From positions 85,580-149,579 of the forward strand of contig CAWDRQ010000046.1 of the NCBI GenBank assembly GCA_963804765.1: 64,000 bases of DNA. Reading direction: 5' to 3'. The notes below the pieces were generated by a model, which saw only the letters and a program-made list of their open reading frames with translations, made no database searches and had not been told where the DNA came from. A program made the position numbers and the translations under genes. Positions 5,576-48,151 of this stretch are shown here, piece by piece (the stretch's first letter is position 1; each line of letters begins with the position of its first letter). Origin of the DNA: an uncultured Acidimicrobiaceae bacterium. GTDB taxonomy: Bacteria > Actinomycetota > Acidimicrobiia > Acidimicrobiales > Bog-793.

Positions 5576-6619
5576 ATGACCCCTACACCGCCGGCCGGTC
5601 TCGGCGAGGAGATCGAAGGCCGTGTCGCCGAGCTGTTGGAGCTATCCGGTGCCCGGGGCAACCGCGACCTTCTCCGGGACATCCTCGTGACGGGGCTCTC
5701 GCTCGCTCGCATCGATGCCAGCCGGCTCGACCTGAAGATCGCGGCCTCGGCGCTCGCCGAGATGGAGCGGGCGTTCGAGCTGTTCGCGAGCTACCGGGGC
5801 ATCCCGAAGCTGACCATGTTCGGCTCGGCGCGCACGGCAGTATCCGACCCTTTGTATGCCCAGGCAACCGACCTTGCCGCACGCATGGCCCATGAGAAGT
5901 GGCTCGTGGTCACTGGCGCCGGACCGGGCATCATGGCTGCGGGAGCCGACGGAGCGGGCACTGAGATGTCCCTCGGCGTCGAGATCCGTCTCCCCTTCGA
6001 GACCGCCTCTCACCCCCAGCTCGCCGCCGAGGGCCGTCTTGTCGAGATGAAGTACTTCTTCACCCGAAAGCTCATGTTGATGAAGGAGTCGGCCGCCTTC
6101 GCGGTCCTGCCGGGCGGCTTCGGCACGCTGGACGAATGTTTCGAGCTCCTCACCTTGCTTCAGACGGGCAAGGCGGAGCCCGCGCCGATCGTCCTGCTGG
6201 ACCTTCCTGGCGACCCGTACTGGGAGGCACTCGAGAGGTTCCTCAAGGGCGAGGTGTCGCGGCGGGGCCTCGTGGACCGCGAGGACGGGGCCCTGTACCG
6301 CATCACCGACGATGTCGGCGTGGCCGTCAATGAGATCCTCCGCTTCTACCGCAACTACCACTCGCGGCGCTTTGTCGGCGCGACGATGGTCATACGCTGC
6401 CGGTTCGCGCCAAGCGACGAGGAGCTGGCGCAGCTAAACCAGGAATTCGCCGACATCTGCACCTCGAAGGGGATCTGGCGGACCGGCCCCTTGCCCCCCG
6501 AGCGAGCGGGTCGTGACCACCTCGAGCTGAAGCGCATCGCGCTCGAGTTCGACCGGCGCTCGCACGGCCGGCTCCGCATGCTCATCGACACCATCAACCG
6601 GTGGCCGGCCTCGAGCTGA
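5576..6619 (+). CDS. LOG family protein (TIGR00730-type Rossmann fold, long form with N-terminal extension)
   Basis: Motifs VVTGAGPGIMAAG and PGGFGTLDECFELLTL (PGGxGTxxE). ATG lies 3 nt after the fbiC stop. Confidence 0.8.
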   Translation: MTPTPPAGLGEEIEGRVAELLELSGARGNRDLLRDILVTGLSLARIDASRLDLKIAASALAEMERAFELFASYRGIPKLTMFGSARTAVSDPLYAQATDLAARMAHEKWLVVTGAGPGIMAAGADGAGTEMSLGVEIRLPFETASHPQLAAEGRLVEMKYFFTRKLMLMKESAAFAVLPGGFGTLDECFELLTLLQTGKAEPAPIVLLDLPGDPYWEALERFLKGEVSRRGLVDREDGALYRITDDVGVAVNEILRFYRNYHSRRFVGATMVIRCRFAPSDEELAQLNQEFADICTSKGIWRTGPLPPERAGRDHLELKRIALEFDRRSHGRLRMLIDTINRWPASS

Positions 6620-6623
6620 ACGC

Positions 6624-6960
6624 TCAGTCGCCCGCGTGTCCCGGTTCCTCGGCCTCCCAGGCTCCCCCGTCTCCGGCCGCGCTCAGCCTGGCCCACGAGC
6701 GACGAGGCGCGTTCGATGGCGTTGCGGGCACGCGACAGCAACCTCTCGCGCACGAGGTCAGGGTCCCTCTTGGAGGGCTTGGCGCCCCGGTGCAGGTGGG
6801 CGCGCAGAGAGTCGTAGGCCGCATCGCGGAGCCGCTCGGCGAGAGTGTCGAGCTCCGCCCGGATCGCCTGCAAGGTCTCGTCGCCCACGGTGCCTCCGCT
6901 CGTCTCGGCAGCTTCTCGCCTGCCCGGCGCGTTCGGTCCTGACGGTCTCGCGCCCATCAT
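6624..6960 (-). CDS. hypothetical small helical protein; the frame problem near 6675-6684 is tentative
   Basis: Within the 561-aa minus ORF 6355..8040, only this stretch reads like real protein with strong GC3 bias: ...TLQAIRAELDTLAERLRDAAYDSLRAHLHRGAKPSKRDPDLVRERLLSRARNAIERASSLVGQAE. Read straight through, it would overlap the LOG gene by about 265 nt. A +1 shift instead joins it to ...AAGDGGAWEAEEPGHAGD*, which ends at 6624, just past the LOG stop. The ATGATG at 6960 is in frame. Confidence 0.3.
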
Positions 6961-7050
6961 CGGCCGCCCGGCGCGCAACCTCGGCGAAGAAGCCACCTGT
7001 CCCGGTGCCCTGGGTAATCTTGCCATAGAGCAGGGGGATCCTCGAGGAGG

Positions 7051-28153: not shown

Positions 28154-28320
28154 CGGCCATGACGCTATCGGCAGCGCCCGGCTCCTACCGGGTCATTCGG
28201 TCGCTACGCGCGCCGCGCCTGTGCTTTGAGCGAATCGAGGTGAGTCCGCGGACGCCGCCCGGTTGCCGGTTGTTCGCGCCCACGAGTGTTGTGGCTGCGG
28301 ATGAAAGCGTTCCACGCTTC

Positions 28321-28764
28321 TCATGGTTGTTTGCACTCTGTCCCCGAGGTGGCAATCGTGGTCTCACCGGTGGCGGCCGATTCGGCGCTCGCCCAATTGG
28401 TGCCCACCGATGCCGCCACCTTGAAGTAGTAGTTGCCTGCCGTGAGGGTCCCACTGGTCCACGACGTCGTGGCTGCCGTGCCAGTGGACGAGTATGTGCC
28501 CGCCAAGGTCGTCGCCTTGTAGATCGTGTAGCTCGAGGCGTCAGTGACCGCGTTCCACGAAACCGTCACGGTCCGTCCGCTGGAGGACACGCACAGGTCC
28601 GAAACGCCGCTTGGTGCAGATGGCCCCGGCTTGGCCTGGGCCTCGCCGTTGCTCCCGGTGTGGAGCGCGAGCGTCCAGTTGGACCCGGCGGCGGGGACGA
28701 CGGTTGCCAGCACGACAGCGACGAGGATCCCAGCAGACAGCGGCGCGAGTGGCGTGCGGGCCAA
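28321..28764 (-). CDS. secreted or anchored FN3-domain protein (paralog pair member 2)
   Basis: N-terminal hydrophobic segment LSAGILVAVVLATVV, then NWTLALHTGSNGEAQA, then an FN3-like pattern VTVSWNAVTDASSYTIYKATTLAGTYSS...YYFKVAA. TTG start at 28764. Confidence 0.7.
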   Translation of the reverse strand: MARTPLAPLSAGILVAVVLATVVPAAGSNWTLALHTGSNGEAQAKPGPSAPSGVSDLCVSSSGRTVTVSWNAVTDASSYTIYKATTLAGTYSSTGTAATTSWTSGTLTAGNYYFKVAASVGTNWASAESAATGETTIATSGTECKQP

Positions 28765-28804
28765 CGTTCGTGGTCGTTGCTCGCGCCGTTGCCTGCTATG
28801 GCGG

Positions 28805-29470
28805 TCAGCTCGCCCAGGCGTCGGTGGCCGGGCTCGTCGTCACTGTCGCGGCGCCACCGGTGGCGGTGACACCGGTGAGCGACGGCATGGAGAAGTACGT
28901 GTTCTCACACGCCGCCGGGGCGGCGAGGGCCATGGAGGCGTCGTTGGTCAAAGTGACCGTCAAGGGGTTGCCCGTCCCGTTGTAGGCGGCGACCGTGACT
29001 GGCGTCGTCAATGTGTGCGAGCTGCCGCTCGTGCCGGTCGCGTAGTTCCAGGAGACGTCGCTCGTGGTCGACGAGCAGCCCGACTGAGCGGTCGACAAAG
29101 AGCTCGTCGTGTACCCGGAGGCGTAGCTCGTGTTCGCCGGCAAGTTCACCGCAGTGATGGTGACGGGGAAGGCATTCGGGTTAGAGATCGTGAGCACCAC
29201 GTCGCCGTTGCCGCCGGGGTACAGGACGTTCGTGGCGGCCGGGGACGCGACGGCGGTGATCGTCAAGTTGGACACCGTCGCCGACTGTGCCTCACCGCTC
29301 GCGCCGGCGTTGAGCCCGACGGCCCAGTTCGTCGCCGCATAGGCGCCACCTCCTGCGAGAAGGGCACCGAGCACCGCGCTTACAAGCTTCGTCTTACGCG
29401 ACCAAGGCGTGCTGGTCCTGCTGTGCGCCTTGCCGTGACCCGTACGACCTCGAACGCTTAACGCAGACAC
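28805..29470 (-). CDS. secreted or anchored beta-rich (Ig-like) protein (paralog pair member 1)
   Basis: Positively charged N terminus, hydrophobic LVSAVLGALLAGGGAYAA, then NWAVGLNAGASGEAQS. The rest is Ser/Thr/Asn-rich beta-strand-like sequence with two Cys (SGCSS, AACEN). GTG start at 29470 with GGAG 8-11 nt upstream. Confidence 0.72.
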   Translation of the reverse strand: MSALSVRGRTGHGKAHSRTSTPWSRKTKLVSAVLGALLAGGGAYAATNWAVGLNAGASGEAQSATVSNLTITAVASPAATNVLYPGGNGDVVLTISNPNAFPVTITAVNLPANTSYASGYTTSSLSTAQSGCSSTTSDVSWNYATGTSGSSHTLTTPVTVAAYNGTGNPLTVTLTNDASMALAAPAACENTYFSMPSLTGVTATGGAATVTTSPATDAWAS

Positions 29471-29497
29471 GAAAGATCTCCCGTTTCAATCCGTGAG

Positions 29498-29517
29498 GTG
29501 TTCCCTCATTGGAACAC
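29498..29517. promoter_or_regulatory. perfect 7-bp inverted repeat GTGTTCC-N6-GGAACAC in the leader of the secreted-protein genes
   Basis: Read directly: gtgttcc ctcatt ggaacac, 28-47 nt upstream of the GTG at 29470. Could be an operator or a 5'-UTR hairpin. Confidence 0.35.
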
Positions 29518-29563
29518 TGCCTCCGGTATTTCGACAGGATTCTTAGGCTCTTTAACCCCGAAC

Positions 29564-29591
29564 GTACGGAATTTTCATCAGTACCGTACTG
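29564..29591. promoter_or_regulatory. composite site A: GTACGGA-N8-CAGTACCGTACTG (13-bp 6-1-6 palindrome), candidate LuxR-type operator
   Basis: Read directly at 29564-29591. Lies between the PAS-LuxR stop (29600) and the secreted-protein gene start (29470). A near-identical copy lies at 31498-31526. Confidence 0.5.
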
Positions 29592-29599
29592 ATTTCCTT

Positions 29600-31408
29600 C
29601 TACGTGTCCTGTTGCGGAGCGATCCCTTCGAGGTCCTGTTGGGCACTCAGGGCAGCGCGAGTCAAACGCGAGAACTCAGCCGCGGCCTCCTCTCTGGTGC
29701 GGACTCCGAGCTTTCGGTAGCTGTGCGCGAGATGCGACTCGACGGTCCGGACAGAGACCGAGAGATGCGCGGCCATCTTCGGGGCTGTGAAGCCCTCGCA
29801 CAGGAGTGTGAGTATCTCCGTCTCTCTCGGTGTGAAGCTTGCGAGGAGCTTGCCCGCCGTCATCGCGTGCGCCACGAGCTCGCGCTCGAGGCGCTTGCGC
29901 TTGGTGATGTCTTCTACGATGCGCAAGCCATAGATCGGCGCGCCATGCTCACCCCGGATGATTGAAGCGGTCACACTTGCGAAGACAACGTCTCCGACAT
30001 CAGTGACGAAGCGTGTCTCGGCCTGATAGCCCGGGATCATCTCCGCTGACAGCCTTCGCGCGAGCTCGGACTGTTTGTCCGCGTCTTCGGGGTGGGCGCA
30101 GGATGCGAAAGTGGCCCCCACGAGCTGGTCTCTCGTCCGTCCGACGAAGTGGCACAGCGCCCGATTCGCGTCCACGATCCGCGAATCGAGGTCGACGAGG
30201 GCAATCCCGAGAGGCCCCTCGTTGAAAACCTGACGGAACCGTTGCTCGCTCTCGCGGAGTTCCTCCTCGGTGCGCCTGCGTTCTGTCACGTCACGAACGC
30301 TCCAGACGCGCCCGACAGCCACACCGTCCACGTACTGCGGCTTCGAGTAACGTTCGAACACTTGACCGTCCTTCAACTCCAACGTGTCGCTCGACTCGGC
30401 ATCGGGGTTGGCGTACAGCTCAGCCACCTTGGCCCGGAACTCCTCCGGCTTGGCCAACTGGTCAATCACGAACGAGATCACAGCCGCGCCATCTCGTGCG
30501 GCCAGAATCGAGTCGGGCAGTCGCCACATCTCGGCGAACTGACGGTTGTGGCTGGAAATTCGGCCGGAGGCATCGACCACGAGGATGCCGTCGGCGGTGG
30601 ACTCGAGCGTTGCGGTGAGCAGCGACAGGGTGTCACGAAGCTCGAGCTCGGTCGCGACTCGTACCGTGATGTCGCGACCGGACACAACGAACCCCCCGAC
30701 GGTCGGATCGTCGAGCAGATTGACGAACGAGAGCTCGAACGGCACTGTCTCGCTGCTCGCGTGGCGGCGGAGCTGCACCACGACCGTCACCGGTTTGCAG
30801 GAGGATGCCCCGAGAGACGCTCGCTCGAACGCGTCGCGGAGCTTGGCGCGGTCGGCTTCGGTCACGAGCTCGGCCAGAGGCTGGCCTTCGACGAGCTCGG
30901 GATCGTGGCCCAACAGCCGGCTCAGTGCTGCAGAGACGGAGTCCATCACCCCAAGGGGCGAGACCAGCATCGTCACGTTGGCCGCATTCTGGACGAGGGA
31001 TCGCAGGCGGGCTTCTTCGTTGCGAGCGACTTCAAACCGTCTTCGCTCCGTCAGGTCCCGCAGACTGAAGAGAACCGCTTGACCGCCGAGCCAGTTTATC
31101 GGTGAGCCGATGACCTCCAAGAGGCGCCAACCCGTAGCGGTCTTGGCTCGAACCTCTATGAGGGTGCCCGTCTCCTTTCGCTGCACGCTCACGAGCGACC
31201 GCAGGACTAGCTCCACATCCTCGGGGTGCACGAGATCAAGTGCTGGCAGTCCTATCGAGTCCTCGAGCGACCGGCCGAACATGCGCTCCGCCGCGTGGTT
31301 TCCCCACTGCAGTAAGCCTTGTGGGTCAAGAACGATCACCGCATCGGGAAGCAACCAGGCCAACATCTCGTTCTGAGATTCGAGCCCCGTCATAGTCGCT
31401 CCGTACAC
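29600..31408 (-). CDS. multi-PAS sensor fused to a LuxR/FixJ-type HTH transcriptional regulator
   Basis: At least three PAS-like repeats (LPDAVIVLDPQGLLQWGNHAAERMFG; TADGILVVDASGRISSHNRQFAEMW; GPLGIALVDLDSRIVDANRALCHFVG). C-terminal HTH: TPRETEILTLLCEGFTAPKMAAHLSVSVRTVESHLAHSYRKLGV. No receiver domain. Confidence 0.88.
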   Translation of the reverse strand: MYGATMTGLESQNEMLAWLLPDAVIVLDPQGLLQWGNHAAERMFGRSLEDSIGLPALDLVHPEDVELVLRSLVSVQRKETGTLIEVRAKTATGWRLLEVIGSPINWLGGQAVLFSLRDLTERRRFEVARNEEARLRSLVQNAANVTMLVSPLGVMDSVSAALSRLLGHDPELVEGQPLAELVTEADRAKLRDAFERASLGASSCKPVTVVVQLRRHASSETVPFELSFVNLLDDPTVGGFVVSGRDITVRVATELELRDTLSLLTATLESTADGILVVDASGRISSHNRQFAEMWRLPDSILAARDGAAVISFVIDQLAKPEEFRAKVAELYANPDAESSDTLELKDGQVFERYSKPQYVDGVAVGRVWSVRDVTERRRTEEELRESEQRFRQVFNEGPLGIALVDLDSRIVDANRALCHFVGRTRDQLVGATFASCAHPEDADKQSELARRLSAEMIPGYQAETRFVTDVGDVVFASVTASIIRGEHGAPIYGLRIVEDITKRKRLERELVAHAMTAGKLLASFTPRETEILTLLCEGFTAPKMAAHLSVSVRTVESHLAHSYRKLGVRTREEAAAEFSRLTRAALSAQQDLEGIAPQQDT

Positions 31409-31497
31409 TACAGATGCTGGCCGTTGGCCGCAGAAGCAAAGAACATGTCACCCGCCTAATGTTGCAGCCGCCGGCGGCTCGTCCTTGAGGCATCTAT

Positions 31498-31542
31498 GTA
31501 CGGATAAATGCGTCAGTACGGTACTGGCTGTTTTCTCCGTAC
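31498..31542. promoter_or_regulatory. composite site B: GTACGGA-N9-CAGTACGGTACTG-N9-TCCGTAC, a 45-bp nested inverted repeat in the divergent promoter region
   Basis: Read directly. The outer arms GTACGGA and TCCGTAC are reverse complements. The core is the same 6-1-6 palindrome as site A. Lies between the LuxR-type gene start (31408) and the candidate small ORF start (31550). Confidence 0.5.
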
Positions 31543-31549
31543 CCTTCCA

Positions 31550-31826
31550 GTGCGCCTGGACTCGGTCCCCCTGGAAGTGCTCAAGCTCGTTTGAGAACAT
31601 CTACCTCGAGCTCGCGGACCAGTACGTCGCCCATCTCTCGCTGGTGCGGGCTCAGACGATCGCGGCTCGGGGCTGGTCGCTTGAGGGAATGGTCGACGCC
31701 GTCCTCTTCGAGCTCGAGCGCTTCACCGAGGCGGTCGAAAGATCCGGAAGTCCTGCCGGCTTGTGTGAGGCCGCTCAGCTCAAGACAAGGCCGAACGAGA
31801 CCTGGCCGGCAACGGACCCTGGCTGA
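31550..31826 (+). CDS. hypothetical small protein (~91 aa), apparently needing a +1 correction in the TTT run at 31590-31592
   Basis: GTG at 31550 opens VRLDSVPLEVLKLV*, with 12 of 14 codons ending in G/C. The adjacent frame continues (F)ENIYLELADQYVAHLSLVRAQTIAARGWSLEGMVDAVLFELERFTEAVERSGSP..., also with very high GC3. The upstream part of the listed 113-aa ORF has low GC3. No family recognised. Confidence 0.35.
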
Positions 31827-44271: not shown

Positions 44272-46029
44272 GTGTCAAGCTCAAGGTCCAGCAGCCGCGC
44301 GCCGATGACTCGATTGGTGTTCGAGCATCAGCGAGGCCATTTGCGGCGCGAGCGGGGCCACGCTGTGCCCGAGGGTTTCATAGCGGAGCGGCCGCTTGTG
44401 GGCCACTACGAGCTCGCGGCGATGTTCGGCGCGTTCGCCGACCTCGTCACGTTTCACGACCTCGACGGGACGATCCGGCTCGCGTCCGACTCCTCCCGCG
44501 CGATCCTGGGCCTCTCTCCGGACCAGCTCATCGGCCGGATGCCGACCGAGACCTTTGTCTGCGCCGAGGACGCGCCGCTCTTCGCCGCTGCTGTGAACCG
44601 TCTCCGCCAGGGCAACGAGACCGTCGAGGTCACCTTTCGCGTCCCGACCCAGACTGCTCAGGCGCAATGGCTCGACACGAGGATCGGGGCCGTTCGCGGC
44701 CTCAAGGGATCGGCTAGCGGTTTCGTCGCCGTTTCGCGTGTCGCGACCGACCGTCTCGAGACCGAGCGACGCCACCAGGAGCAGTTGGAGCGCTATCGCC
44801 AGATCACAGACGCCGTGCCGGGAATGACTGCTTTGGTCATCGATCGCGAGCTCTGCTGCCGCTTCGCAGCCGGAGGCGGTTTCCCCTCGATCACCGGTGG
44901 CCCGGACGCTTGTGTCGGCCACCCCCTCGCGCAGCTCCTGAGCGAAGATCGGTTCGAAGCTGCACGGCGTCACCTCGAAGAGTGCTTCGCCGGCCTCACC
45001 GCGACCGAGGAGAGCTCGGGTCCCGGTCGGTATCAGTTCTGGACGCGATACCTACCCGTTACCTCCAGCTCAGCGGCGATCGAGGAAGCCCTCCTCGTGA
45101 ACCTGGAGGTCAGCGATCGCGAGCGAACTCACGAAGCGCTGCGCCGGAGCGAAGCCAGCTTCTCGAGCGCCTTCGACAATTCCCCTATCGGCATGGCCAT
45201 CATCTCCCCCGACGGGTCCGTGCAGCGTGCAAACGACGCGTTCTGCGCGTTGACGAAACGGTCCCGCGAAGAATTGCACCGGGGATCGTGGTCGGATCTG
45301 ATTCACCCCGACGACGTCGAGTCCAACCGCGAGCTGACAGTCCGGATGCTCGCGGGCGAGAGACGAACCGCCATGGTCGACAGACGCTACTTGCGACCCG
45401 ACCACTCCGTGGTGCACACCGTGATGAGCATCACCCTAGTCAGGGATGAGGTCGGTCGGCCGCTTCATCTCGTCACTCAGGTCCTCGATGTGACCGACCG
45501 CCACCGCTTGGAGGCCTACCTCGAGGAGCTTGTGCTGCGCGATCCGCTCACGGGCGCTCACAATCGCAGGGCCCTCGACGTCGAGCTTTCCCGACGACTC
45601 GATCTTGAATCGGCAGAAGCACCGAGCGGCGCGCTCGTGCTGTTCGACATCGACAACTTCAAGGACCTGAACGACACCTTCGGCCACGACGTCGGTGACG
45701 ACGTCCTCAGGCACCTGGTCGCACAATGGCGTGAACGCCTGCGTCGCAGCGACGTCCTGGTGCGAATCGGCGGCGACGAGTTTGTCGTCCTGCTCGGCGA
45801 CAGCGACCCGGACAGCGTCGAATCGGTCGCCCGTGACCTTCTGACTCTCGCGGACAGTGCGATCCTGACCGTCACGGGTGTGCCCTCGTCGGTCAGTGCC
45901 GGAATGGCGCTGTTCCGGCCCGAGGAGGACTCTGCACAGCTGCTTCGCCGCGCCGACGACGCTCTTTATCTCGCCAAGCGCGCGGGCCGGGGGCGACTCG
46001 TCGTCGACCGCGAAGACTCCGAGTTCTGA
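44272..46029 (+). CDS. PAS-PAS-GGDEF diguanylate cyclase
   Basis: PAS-like segments (FADLVTFHDLDGTIRLASDSS; SPIGMAIISPDGSVQRANDAF) and a canonical GGDEF domain (DPLTGAHNRR, FDIDNFKDLNDTFGH, RIGGDEFVV). The start is uncertain (44272 or ATG 44305). Confidence 0.88.
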   Translation: MSSSRSSSRAPMTRLVFEHQRGHLRRERGHAVPEGFIAERPLVGHYELAAMFGAFADLVTFHDLDGTIRLASDSSRAILGLSPDQLIGRMPTETFVCAEDAPLFAAAVNRLRQGNETVEVTFRVPTQTAQAQWLDTRIGAVRGLKGSASGFVAVSRVATDRLETERRHQEQLERYRQITDAVPGMTALVIDRELCCRFAAGGGFPSITGGPDACVGHPLAQLLSEDRFEAARRHLEECFAGLTATEESSGPGRYQFWTRYLPVTSSSAAIEEALLVNLEVSDRERTHEALRRSEASFSSAFDNSPIGMAIISPDGSVQRANDAFCALTKRSREELHRGSWSDLIHPDDVESNRELTVRMLAGERRTAMVDRRYLRPDHSVVHTVMSITLVRDEVGRPLHLVTQVLDVTDRHRLEAYLEELVLRDPLTGAHNRRALDVELSRRLDLESAEAPSGALVLFDIDNFKDLNDTFGHDVGDDVLRHLVAQWRERLRRSDVLVRIGGDEFVVLLGDSDPDSVESVARDLLTLADSAILTVTGVPSSVSAGMALFRPEEDSAQLLRRADDALYLAKRAGRGRLVVDREDSEF

Positions 46030-46122: not shown

Positions 46123-47998
46123 TCACCCGGCCCGGCGGCCTGCGTGGACTTCGCGTGCTTCGCCTCCGAACCGGTCGCGCTTGGACTGCGCGGTGCGCCT
46201 TCCTCGCTCAGCCTGGTCGAGCAGAACCTTGCGCAACCGGACGCTGGCCGGGGTGGCCTCGACGCACTCGTCCTCGCTGATGAATTCGAGCGCCTGCTCG
46301 AGCGAGAGGAGCCTGGGTGGAATCAGGCGGACCAGCTCCTCGGCCGTGGAGGAGCGCACGTTGGTGACCTTGCGCTCCTTGGTCGCGTTGACGTCCATGT
46401 CCTCGGGGCGGGCGTTCTCTCCGATGATCATTCCTTCGTAGACCTCGACGCCGGGCCCGACGAACAGCGCGCCGCGATCCTGGAGGTTCATCAGGGCGTA
46501 GGTGGTCGTCAAACCGCTCCTGTCGGCGACCAGCGAGCCCGACGCACGCGTGCGCAACTCACCGTGCCACGGCTCGAAGCGGTCGAATATGTGATGCAAC
46601 ACTCCGGTTCCGCGGGTCTCGGTCAAGAACTCGGTGCGAAAGCCGATCAAGCCGCGAGACGGTACCGAGTAGTCGACCCTCGCCCAGCCGGTGCCGTGAT
46701 TGACCATCTGTACGAGGCGCCCCTTGCGCAGCGACAGCAGCTGGGTGACTACGCCGAGGAACTCCTCGGGCACGTCGATCGACACCGCCTCCACCGGCTC
46801 GTGCAGCTTGTCGCCGATCATCCGGGTCACAACCTGCGGCTTGCCCACGGTGATCTCGAACCCTTCTCGGCGCAGCATCTCGACTAGAACGGCGAGCTGC
46901 AGCTCACCGCGGCCTTGTACCTCCCAGGTATCGGGTCGCTCCGTGGTCAGCAGGCGAATTCGAGACGTTCCCGACAAGCTCTGCATCAAGGCGGTTCTTG
47001 AGCAGCCTGGCGGTTACCTTGGTGCCTTCGGTCCCCGACAGGGGCGAAGTGTTGATGCCGATCGTCATCCCGAGGCTGGGCTCGTCGACGATGAGAACCG
47101 GAAGCGGACGCGGGTCGTCGGGGTCCGAGAGCGTCTCGCCGATCGTGACCTCGGACAACCCGGCCACGGCGATGATCTCGCCCGGGCCGGCCTCGGCGGC
47201 ATCGACTCGGTCCAGCCCCTCGGACACGTACAGCTCGGCAACCTTGAATCGCTCCACATTTCCGTCGGCCCGGCACCACGCAACCTGCTGCCCGCGTCGG
47301 ATCGTGCCATGCAGGACACGGCAGATCGCGAGACGACCGACATAGGCCGACGCGTCGAGGTTCGTGACCAGTGCCTGCAGCGGATGATCCGGCTCAAATG
47401 TCGGAGCGGGAATGTAGTCGTAGATGACCTTGAACAACGGCTCAAGGTCTGTTCCTGTCACCGTGGGGTCGAGCGAGGCTCGTCCCGCCCTGGCATTGCA
47501 GTACACGATGGGGAACTCGATCTGTTCCTCGTCCGCGTCGAGGTCCATGAAGAGCTCATAGACGTCGTCCACCACTTCCTTGGGACGCGCGTCGGGGCGG
47601 TCGATCTTGTTGACCACGAGCACGACAGGCAGGCGCCGCTCGAGCGCCTTGCGCAACACGAAGCGGGTCTGGGGCAAGGGACCTTCGCTCGCGTCCACAA
47701 GCAGGAGAACGCCGTCGACCATCGCGAGAGCTCTCTCGACCTCTCCGCCGAAGTCGGCATGCCCCGGAGTGTCCACGATGTTGAACTTCACGCCTCCGTG
47801 GCGCACGGAGGTGTTCTTCGCCAGGATGGTGATCCCCTTCTCGCGCTCGAGATCGATCGAGTCCATGACGCGCTCATTGACTTCTTGATTCACGCGGAAC
47901 ACTCCCGATTGCCACAACATCCCGTCGACAAGGGTCGTCTTGCCGTGGTCGACGTGAGCGACGATCGCGAGGTTGCGGAAGTTGGCGCGCGAGAGCAT
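46123..47998 (-). pseudogene. typA: translational GTPase TypA/BipA, split by a net +1 frameshift near 46955-46963
   Basis: ORF 46904..48043 reads [22 protein letters not shown]...[14 protein letters not shown]...NKID...[22 protein letters not shown], then leaves frame. ORF 46123..46989 continues [35 protein letters not shown]... Removing one A from tcgAAttc gives NVSIRLL. ATG at 47998. Confidence 0.88.
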
Positions 47999-48151
47999 GT
48001 GGGCAGGACCCCTGAGAAAGGCACGGCAAACGCCGCGTGACACGATTCTACCGGCTCCGACGCGCGACAGCTCTCAGGAGGGCGACCGTCTGCGGCGCCG
48101 GGCTTGGACCGAGCCGCCGCTTTCCAAGCTTCCGAGGATCTCCGGGCCTTG

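Follow-up and report, generated by a model that had tools for sequence, protein, structure and literature searches.

Regulators with a GerE/LuxR-type helix-turn-helix (HTH) domain recognise operators of differing architecture. For example, NarL binds pairs of heptamers in a 7-2-7 arrangement (TACYYMT-N2-AKRRGTA), and in Bacillus subtilis ComA has a tripartite site, an inverted repeat with extra half-sites. The PAS-LuxR regulators of Streptomyces (PimM, PteF, AmphRIV and NysRIV) use a 16-bp site, CTVGGGAWWTCCCBAG, located in the -35 region (PMC9774167). Here we describe two palindromic sites built on the tetranucleotide GTAC, designated A and B, that flank a gene for a LuxR-type regulator with four PAS domains (4xPAS-LuxR) in a 64-kb stretch of DNA (contig CAWDRQ010000046.1; hereafter the window) from an uncultured Acidimicrobiaceae bacterium. 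Site A separates this gene from the first of two genes for small exported proteins, p221 and p147, while site B lies upstream of the regulator gene. We consider it probable, though some way short of certain, that the sites represent a 43-45 bp operator bound most likely by the adjacent 4xPAS-LuxR, with site A situated upstream of a predicted sigma-28-type promoter. The Acidimicrobiia are abundant in peat, soil and water and are almost entirely uncultured, and to our knowledge no transcription-factor regulon has been defined for them.

Two four-box palindromes flank the 4xPAS-LuxR gene

The first-pass annotation of the window reported a composite palindromic site in two copies bracketing the regulator gene, and on re-reading, both copies matched exactly as they had been spelled. 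On the forward strand, site A reads GTACGGA (29564-29570), N8 and CAGTACCGTACTG (29579-29591), while site B reads GTACGGA (31498-31504), N9, CAGTACGGTACTG (31514-31526), N9 and TCCGTAC (31536-31542). The cores of the two sites are palindromic and, as that annotation described, mutually reverse complementary, forming 14-nt perfect reverse complements on either side of the LuxR gene, and its reading of site B as a 45-bp nested inverted repeat was also borne out, with all four GTAC boxes present. The exact sequence of the composite site therefore stands, but the unit proved larger than described, being a four-box dyad of 43-45 bp at site A as well as at site B. On the reverse strand, site A reads ACAC(GTAGA)-N-CAGTAC-G-GTACTG-N9-CCGTAC, with three GTAC boxes (29589-29586, 29584-29581 and 29567-29564) and a fourth, leftmost box that is degenerate in the window (ACAC-GTAGA, 29607-29599; the box itself at 29607-29604) and overlaps the LuxR stop codon TAG (29602-29600). 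The site is positioned 9 nt past the LuxR stop codon and 109-121 nt ahead of the p221 start, in agreement with the earlier estimate of about 110 nt to the first secreted-protein gene, and site B, which lies at the module's outer edge, has its centre 127 nt ahead of the LuxR ATG. From GTAC to GTAC, site A has spacers of N14/N1/N13 and site B of N14/N1/N14, compared with N13/N1/N13 in most orthologues; site A thus carries one additional nucleotide in its left spacer and site B one in both, giving the perfect 45-bp palindrome.

The recurrence of this motif is beyond chance, as had been claimed. The sequence CAGTACNGTACTG occurs as two exact copies in the 64 kb and was absent from 100 dinucleotide-preserving shuffles (mean 0.00), and the extended site-A pattern with up to three mismatches gave one match against 0.02 expected. 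The window contains 158 GTAC tetranucleotides, but three or more within 50 bp occur only at sites A and B, in line with the earlier report of no further full copy. The heptamer GTACGGA is not significant by itself (7 observed versus 4.3 expected). A fixed-spacing position weight matrix scan of the window returned site A only, with no weaker sites, site B having been missed owing to its +1 spacing.

Site A is conserved together with the LuxR and p221 genes

To describe conservation, 13 orthologous spacers between the LuxR and p221 genes were aligned, and three further module loci were read outside the alignment. Site A is conserved in all of these Acidimicrobiia loci and always lies between the 4xPAS-LuxR gene and the gene for the 221-amino-acid exported protein. 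On the LuxR-sense strand, the invariant block of the 13 aligned spacers reads [G/A]TACGTAGA-N6-aTC-n-GTAC-n-[G/T]TACTG-N3-AAA-N3-CCGTAC, with the boxes of the orthologues ordered as GTAC-N13-GTAC-N1-GTAC-N13-GTAC and the left box represented by [G/A]TACGTAGA. The densest invariant block of the alignment falls exactly on these four boxes. The 43 operator columns average 1.59 bits each, and the corresponding values are 0.36 for the upstream flank and 0.61-0.85 for inter-element stretches. The spacing TACTG-N9-CCGTAC is constant across all 13, while all four bases occur at the central position. Conservation of the left box TACGTAGA is seen with or without an overlap with the LuxR stop codon, and coding constraint therefore does not explain it.

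The operator was present in every fetched locus that carried both LuxR and p221 (15 listed, two of them near-identical pairs: the window, L001/7, L004, L006, L008, L009, L010, L011/L101, L116, L124, L129, L136, L137, L138 and L143). It was absent within 4-6 kb on either side of the LuxR orthologues that lack p221 (L005 and L139-L141), and half-site relics were found right after the LuxR stop codon in L005 and L144. Similarly, a p221 homologue without a LuxR neighbour (L142) had neither operator nor promoter upstream. Three tandem copies of GGGTACTGATCGCTCCCACCGC lie upstream of this same homologue (L142, 4690-4755).

A four-box regular expression run on 976 kb of fetched DNA identified four distinct sites in six matching loci, three of which are copies of one site, and gave no match in about 120 unrelated loci. 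The distinct sites were the LuxR-p221 spacer (L001/L002/L007), site B of the window, a site upstream of a paralogous LuxR gene (L012) and a site in L111; the first three adjoin a gene of the LuxR clade, while the fourth precedes an RsbW-like open reading frame (ORF). No further copy of the operator was found in 180 kb of related loci. In addition, a scan of 185,579 genomes, one per species, with the pattern GTACGG-N9/10-CAGTACNGTACKG gave 50 matches. Six Acidimicrobiia genomes had a single match each, and in five of them it was at the LuxR-p221 junction.

Shorter PAS-LuxR paralogues (L012 and L013; 47-57% identity) carry TACGG-N9-CCGTA-TT-TAC[GT]G-N9-CCGTA immediately ahead of the start of each gene. 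It is therefore with the LuxR clade, and not only with p221, that the half-site TAC[G/T]G in the arrangement -> <- -> <- travels. In both paralogue loci, the four-box site (L012, 3364-3403; L013, 63-105) directly follows a -35-like hexamer, TTGACG. The L012 paralogue also adjoins a divergent gene for a 222-amino-acid exported protein (N-terminus GTWAAWTISD...), which has no detectable similarity to p221.

The L111 site, from an Acidimicrobiales metagenome-assembled genome, is a five-box array, GTAC-n-GTAC-N13-GTAC-n-GTAC-N13-GTAC (6445-6492), upstream of an ORF for an RsbW/SpoIIAB-like anti-sigma kinase (6566-7009), and no LuxR orthologue was found nearby. The RsbW-like gene may be a second member of the regulon.

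A predicted sigma-28-type promoter and 5' leader follow site A

The fliC promoter of Pseudomonas aeruginosa reads (-36)TCTAAAG(-30)/(-15)GCCGATAA(-8) (PMC12784957), while the actinobacterial WhiG consensus is T(A/C)AA-N16-GCCGATAA or CTCA-N16-17-GCCGAACT, with a critical central CGA (PMC12871210). In every orthologue of our locus, a motif of this type begins 8-9 nt beyond the right operator box and reads c[T/C]T[A/C]AAG, 14 nt and G[C/T]CGA[A/C]A, with T.AAG and G.CGA.A invariant in the 13 aligned sequences. In the window, the predicted promoter comprises a -35 element TTAAAG (29555-29550), N14 and a -10 element GTCGAAAT (29535-29528), and can also be read as TAAA-N15-GTCGAAAT (29554-29528), 58 nt from the GTG. 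Scans with the patterns T[AC]AA-N15-G[CT]CGA.A and T[AC]AA-N14-16-G[CT]CGA[ATC]A located it once in the window (29554-29529, reverse strand), once in each of ten module loci, always at the p221 promoter, and in none of four LuxR-only loci. The same pattern had no match in the vicinity of the flagellar genes or csrA in L137 and L138. The promoter on the site A side agrees with the published sigma-28/WhiG consensus features, including the CGA, and in fliC numbering the operator spans approximately -86 to -44, with its dyad near -65, a position that on sequence grounds fits that of an activator site. The predicted transcription start is near 29520. A scan for sigma-70 promoters between 28100 and 32000 gave no matches. 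An extracytoplasmic function (ECF)-type reading of CAGTAC-N16/17-CCGTAC as -35 and -10 elements was dropped, because the left box is also conserved and a better sigma-28 match lies just downstream.

The p221 mRNA is predicted to begin at the first base of a conserved stem-loop (29517-29498), in which three of the six pairs keep pairing through changes on both sides among 13 sequences. The triplet GGA opens its 3' arm, and a second GGA lies within the Shine-Dalgarno sequence that precedes the GTG start codon at 29470. Given the csrA gene just ahead of the LuxR gene in L137 and L138, CsrA-type translational control acting on the 5' hairpin and Shine-Dalgarno sequence, as for Bacillus hag, is conceivable. 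A search of Rfam at a permissive E-value gave only a sub-threshold small RNA match, inside p221.

The adjacent regulator

The LuxR gene begins with an ATG at 31393, preceded by a Shine-Dalgarno sequence GGAG (31402-31399), and its product combines four PAS domains with an HTH domain matching PF00196 (GerE; E = 3.4e-12, residues 519-571). Orthologues at 57-83% identity are common in Acidimicrobiales metagenomes; a metagenome scan with the LuxR alignment returned, among the matches listed, about nine true orthologues, the remainder being generic LuxR HTH proteins. The recognition helix is near-invariant among orthologues (SVSVRTVE[S/T]HLAN[A/S]YRKLGV). At residues ~553-561, the window protein has HLAHSYRKL where 19 of 20 aligned orthologues have HLAN[A/S]YRKL, with an R at the substituted position in P0095. 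This N-to-H change neighbours the base-contacting positions of NarL-type proteins.

Several further features of the regulator and its gene were observed. A group of GGDEF-output proteins (P0106-P0118) shares 63-71% identity with approximately the first two-thirds of the PAS-LuxR protein, corresponding to the PAS sensor array, and the same sensor thus seems to have been wired to either a DNA-binding or a cyclic di-GMP (c-di-GMP)-synthesis output. An additional TCCGTAC (31400-31406) overlaps the LuxR Shine-Dalgarno sequence (GTACGGAGCGACTATG); L004 and L006 keep the GGAGCGAC(C/T)ATG part without the GTAC, which for this reason is probably incidental. In a 79%-identity clade (L001, 7800-7890; P0003 and P0019), the annotated LuxR ORF runs through the operator, and the resulting C-terminal tail (...EYGEEFGTLLAKFPYV) consists of translated boxes only.

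Site B and the edge of the module

Site B is lineage-specific, as none of the other orthologues was found to have it ahead of the LuxR gene. In L006, the closest relative at 83% protein identity, a decayed copy survives within a homologous stretch that is 77% identical, with two of the four boxes mutated, an indel at the centre and approximately 190 nt inserted before the gene. A degenerate copy of the promoter also lies by site B in the window, reading CCTCAAG (31490-31484), N15 and GCTGCAAC (31468-31461), and has TGC in the place of the CGA that sigma-28 promoters require.

Nucleotide homology between the window and L006 ends at 31542, precisely the outer boundary of site B. The small ORF beyond it covers a ~180-amino-acid family (P0241-P0247) only from about residue 97 on, equivalent to the 3' third of the gene, placing the junction between the module and this remnant within 31543-31595. 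The family member P0247, from a near-identical genome, continues in the other reading frame. The first-pass annotation had placed site B in a divergent promoter shared by the LuxR gene and the small ORF, but the ORF lacks the first ~97 codons and is what remains of a 5'-truncated gene, so that there is no divergent promoter for site B to lie in. Site B instead forms the outermost element of the inserted cassette. No terminal repeats or target-site duplications were found around the module, nor any matching motif after p147. Autoregulation through site B in this lineage has close to even odds in our judgement, and is admitted because none of the 16 GTAC bases has been lost even though the surrounding sequence has diverged, although this is weaker evidence than that for site A.

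Output genes and genomic setting

The coordinates of the features discussed are given in Table 1. The p221 and p147 proteins each have an N-terminal signal or anchor sequence followed by a common motif, NW..L..G..GEAQ, and the signal-peptide end (LLAGGGAYAA) resembles SipW/TasA-type signals. Approximately 1,948 homologues of p221 were found, all unnamed, and the best 120 of these share 65-88% identity, which is unusually conserved for an exported protein. Neither p221 nor p147 matched a profile in Pfam, NCBIfam or the PDB, and the AlphaFold model consulted had a predicted local distance difference test (pLDDT) score of 44, too low to use. In L008, L011, L137 and L138, a third small gene, encoding a coiled-coil protein, follows p147; it is not in the window.

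Table 1 Features of the LuxR-p221-p147 locus and its flanks, in window coordinates.
Feature	Position	Strand	Basis
CDP-alcohol phosphatidyltransferase	33793-32837	-	
Lipid-A-type acyltransferase	32940-31894	-	
5'-truncated remnant of a ~180-amino-acid gene (small ORF of the first-pass annotation)	31596-31826	+	
Site B, perfect 45-bp nested palindrome GTACGGA-N9-CAGTAC-G-GTACTG-N9-TCCGTAC	31498-31542	not assigned	Four GTAC boxes
Degenerate promoter copy by site B	31461-31490	-	
4xPAS + GerE/LuxR-HTH one-component regulator, 597 amino acids	29600-31393	-	Pfam, NCBIfam
Site A, putative four-box operator upstream of the p221 promoter	29564-29607	-	Invariant block in 13 orthologous regions
Predicted sigma-28/FliA/WhiG-type promoter of p221-p147	29528-29555	-	Conserved elements and published consensus
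Conserved stem-loop GUGUUCC-AAUGAG-GGAACAC at the predicted 5' end of the p221 mRNA	29498-29517	-	Fold and covariation
p221 Shine-Dalgarno sequence GGGAG	29478-29482	-	GGAG invariant, ATG/GTG-TC conserved
p221, 221-amino-acid exported or membrane-anchored protein, first output gene	28805-29470	-	Always downstream of the LuxR gene
p147, 147 amino acids, second output gene	28321-28764	-	
GT4 glycosyltransferase	28153-27035	-	

On the reverse strand, the LuxR gene and its two output genes follow the genes for the CDP-alcohol phosphatidyltransferase and the lipid-A-type acyltransferase and precede that for the GT4 glycosyltransferase. The wider order is thrS, HIT, pgsA, patA, module, pimA, yebC, ruvC, ruvB, yajC and secDF, with an M48 peptidase also among the neighbouring genes. 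The LuxR-p221-p147 cassette (28154-31595) is flanked by the patA-like and the pimA-like gene within the conserved block thrS-HIT-pgsA-patA-pimA, and the unit thus interrupts a conserved housekeeping block. Its G+C content (0.63-0.65) is slightly lower than the ~0.68 it is compared with, the window as a whole being ~67% G+C.

In the loci fetched around LuxR orthologues, homologues of p221 and p147 come after the LuxR gene in at least six distinct genomic contexts, always in the same relative orientation of LuxR and p221, while four orthologues (L005 and L139-L141) lack the two small genes. Contexts include positions beside an aminotransferase gene, beside glnA and, in L137 and L138, beside the flagellar genes fliF, fliE, flgC and flgB together with csrA, which lies just upstream of the LuxR gene in these two loci.

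Elsewhere in the window, typA/bipA (46123-48043, reverse strand) seems to be split into overlapping ORFs at 46904-48043 (GTPase and domain 2) and 46123-46989 (EFG_C and BipA_C), which could reflect a frameshift or a sequencing error. A PAS-GGDEF gene (44272-46029) showed merely generic PAS similarity to the LuxR protein.

A proposed mechanism and its alternatives

In the mechanism that we favour, the operator pattern GTACGxA-N8/9-CxGTAC-N-GTACTG-N9/10-CCGTAC, built from the half-site TAC[G/T]G arranged as -> <- -> <-, would be bound by an oligomer of the adjacent 4xPAS-LuxR, either two dimers or a tetramer. Site A would be the conserved, functional copy, placed ahead of a sigma-28/WhiG-type promoter (cTAAAG-N14-GxCGAAAx), at approximately -86 to -44. 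This promoter would drive p221 and p147, and a transcript from it is predicted to start with the conserved 5' stem-loop. We infer that the regulator is a signal-dependent activator that aids the sigma-28 holoenzyme. Site B would be a second copy upstream of the LuxR gene, present in this lineage only, and could serve autoregulation. The first-pass annotation had proposed an autoregulated LuxR-type protein controlling the adjacent output genes. The link of the operator to LuxR and the outputs is supported by its conservation, its loss with either partner and its recurrence at the LuxR paralogues; the autoregulation through site B is not conserved, being found in no other orthologue and decayed in L006, and the predicted sigma-28/WhiG-type promoter downstream of the unit had not been seen.

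Several observations weigh against this mechanism. The assignment of the site to this particular LuxR protein rests on adjacency and co-occurrence, and the near-invariant recognition helix, while fitting a conserved site, leaves no variation for protein-DNA covariation and so rules out such a test. The inner boxes are only 5 bp apart from centre to centre, which is unusually tight for GerE-type dimers and acceptable only if the recognised half-site extends outward (TCxGTAC). The palindrome is also imperfect in some orthologues, reading GTACATTACTG in L001 and L009 and carrying a 1-nt deletion in L010 and L137. No sigma-28 or flagellar gene was found among the genes scanned in the window, and since sigma-28 promoters usually need no activator, site A could equally act negatively. 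Finally, site B has the lack of conservation, the decay in L006 and the promoter copy without CGA described above.

An operator that is real but bound by a factor encoded elsewhere, such as a TetR-type protein, another GTAC-recognising protein or a regulator of the sigma-28 regulon, would leave the PAS-LuxR protein as a mere neighbour. GTAC-rich palindromes do serve unrelated regulators, with about 25 matches to the same pattern in Streptomyces, Kitasatospora and Lentzea lying in TetR divergent promoters, and the site follows the p221 promoter no less than the LuxR gene; the same grammar also precedes the RsbW-like gene of L111 without an adjacent LuxR orthologue. We nonetheless consider another binder unlikely, as LuxR is the one regulator to accompany the site across at least six genomic contexts, the p221 homologue without a LuxR gene has no site, the LuxR paralogues without p221 bear the same grammar upstream of themselves, and site B lies upstream of the LuxR gene. 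It is rather unlikely, too, that site B is a by-product of the copying or movement of the module, whether as a dead promoter-operator stub or as a recombination or inversion site, and not an autoregulatory element. The end of homology with L006 at its very edge, the gene truncated at about codon 97 that starts 53 nt further on, the position of the module inside an otherwise conserved pgsA-patA-pimA block and in other contexts elsewhere, the decayed L006 copy, the defective promoter copy and the 14-nt perfect inverted repeat that the two cores form around the LuxR gene would all suit such an origin. However, no recombinase, transposase or integrase was found in or beside the module and no matching motif or repeat at its far end after p147, the constant orientation of LuxR relative to p221 gives no sign of inversion, modules in other genomes have moved without any site B, and in the window not one of the 16 GTAC bases is lost and the two palindromic extensions are complete, in a region that is only 77% identical to L006.

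A role for the sites as RNA, either as a LuxR terminator or as a structured leader, was considered because site A starts 9 nt past the LuxR stop codon, the consensus scan marks the site B core and a T-run as terminator-like on the forward strand, and site B folds on that strand with a z-score of -3.2. Such a role appears very improbable: the transcribed (reverse) strand folds no better than shuffles (z = -1.3 and -1.7), there is no U-tract after site A, the terminator scan gave one match against 2.4 expected and none on the reverse strand, no gene ends upstream of site B on the forward strand, and there was no Rfam match. In addition, the central base varies without compensation and is deleted in two orthologues, and the hairpin GUACGG/CCGUAC was rejected on the first of these grounds. 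A dispersed repeat, of the repetitive extragenic palindrome or miniature inverted-repeat transposable element (REP/MITE) type, which the first-pass annotation had itself raised as the outcome contrary to its reading, would account for a palindrome in two copies within 2 kb. The probability of this is negligible, given only two copies in 64 kb, a single copy in each matching Acidimicrobiia genome of the 185,579-species scan, five of the six at the same gene junction, and none elsewhere in the 180 kb of related loci. An operator of the neighbouring 4xPAS-LuxR accordingly remains our preferred explanation of the two sites.

If this explanation is true, this LuxR clade would gain a DNA motif, the Actinomycetota would have an example of a sigma-28-type promoter that depends on an activator, and there would be a handle on the role of p221 and p147. 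The locus offers a trio of a 4xPAS-LuxR sensor-regulator, a delimited 43-45 bp operator and a predicted sigma-28/WhiG promoter with a two-gene output. It also matters for genome annotation, as the cassette landed within the pgsA-patA-pimA (phosphatidylinositol mannoside) block and truncated a neighbouring gene. A more speculative extension, which we regard as doubtful, is that the LuxR-operator-p221-p147 unit is a self-contained and relocatable signalling cassette of the Acidimicrobiia in which a four-PAS sensor gates a sigma-28/WhiG-dependent promoter, coupling an environmental or redox cue to a late-flagellar or WhiG/c-di-GMP programme, with an output that consists of a highly conserved exported pair not recognised before, possibly forming a new surface filament or sheath. 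CsrA-type control may add a further layer, which is proposed because csrA adjoins the module in some genomes.

Comparison with known systems

The p221 promoter resembles that of P. aeruginosa fliC in having the same 14-nt gap (PMC12784957), and FliA, SigD, WhiG1 and WhiG2 promoters more generally in its -35 element of the form T(A/C)AAG or CTCA and its -10 element G(C/T)CGA with an invariant CGA (PMC12784957, PMC12871210). As in the sigma-28 family, it lies less than 200 bp from the start codon, and some modules adjoin flagellar genes and csrA. In contrast, the last three bases of the -10 element are AAC or AAT, where the family has TAA, a large conserved operator lies upstream, which is not usual in sigma-28 promoters, and p221 and p147, which it would drive, are not known flagellar, chemotaxis or sporulation genes.

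The TetR divergent operators, from Streptomyces, Kitasatospora, Lentzea and related genera, account for about 25 of the matches to the genome-scan pattern, and read CCGTACAGTACTGTACGG-N6-CCGTACAGnnGTGTAyGG between a leaderless TetR-family gene and a membrane-protein gene (L086-L135; for example, L107, 1792-1831). Like sites A and B, they are GTAC-rich palindromes matching GTACGG-N9/10-CAGTACNGTACKG, but they differ in being arranged as GTAC-N1-GTAC-N1-GTAC, N9 and GTAC-N6-GTAC and in being accompanied by neither a LuxR nor a p221 gene. They caution that palindromes rich in GTAC also occur outside the LuxR-p221 system. Arrays of GTACnGTACnGTACnGTAC were also observed in three Actinomadura loci (L092, L121 and L128).

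Three features expected of a GerE/LuxR operator, namely an adjacent GerE-HTH gene, dyad half-sites at fixed spacing and co-occurrence with the regulator across genomes, were found at this locus. Operators of the NarL/FixJ/LuxR type share with it a GerE-type HTH, a short inverted-repeat core with half-sites beginning TAC, extra half-sites at a fixed spacing that imply more than one dimer, and a location upstream of or next to the -35 element, as is the case for activators. Unlike the NarL and ComA sites, the half-site here is TAC[G/T]G and the four boxes extend over 43-45 bp with the inner pair 1 nt apart, and unlike those systems the regulator has four PAS domains, not a receiver, and the promoter is of sigma-28 and not sigma-70 type.

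As in the Streptomyces PAS-LuxR regulators, PAS sensing is followed by a LuxR HTH and the operator is palindromic, the Streptomyces members being activators of adjacent genes (PMC9774167). Membership of a PimM-type regulon was rejected, as CTVGGGAWWTCCCBAG occurs in neither site and the protein has 597 amino acids with four PAS domains, whereas the Streptomyces proteins are small with a single PAS. The site likewise differs from that of PimM in being GTAC-based, 43-45 bp long and ending 8-9 nt upstream of the -35 element, and the targets are exported proteins where those of the Streptomyces regulators are polyketide clusters. The two sites would constitute a new motif for a known kind of regulator, set apart by a predicted sigma-28-type promoter within a relocatable cassette.

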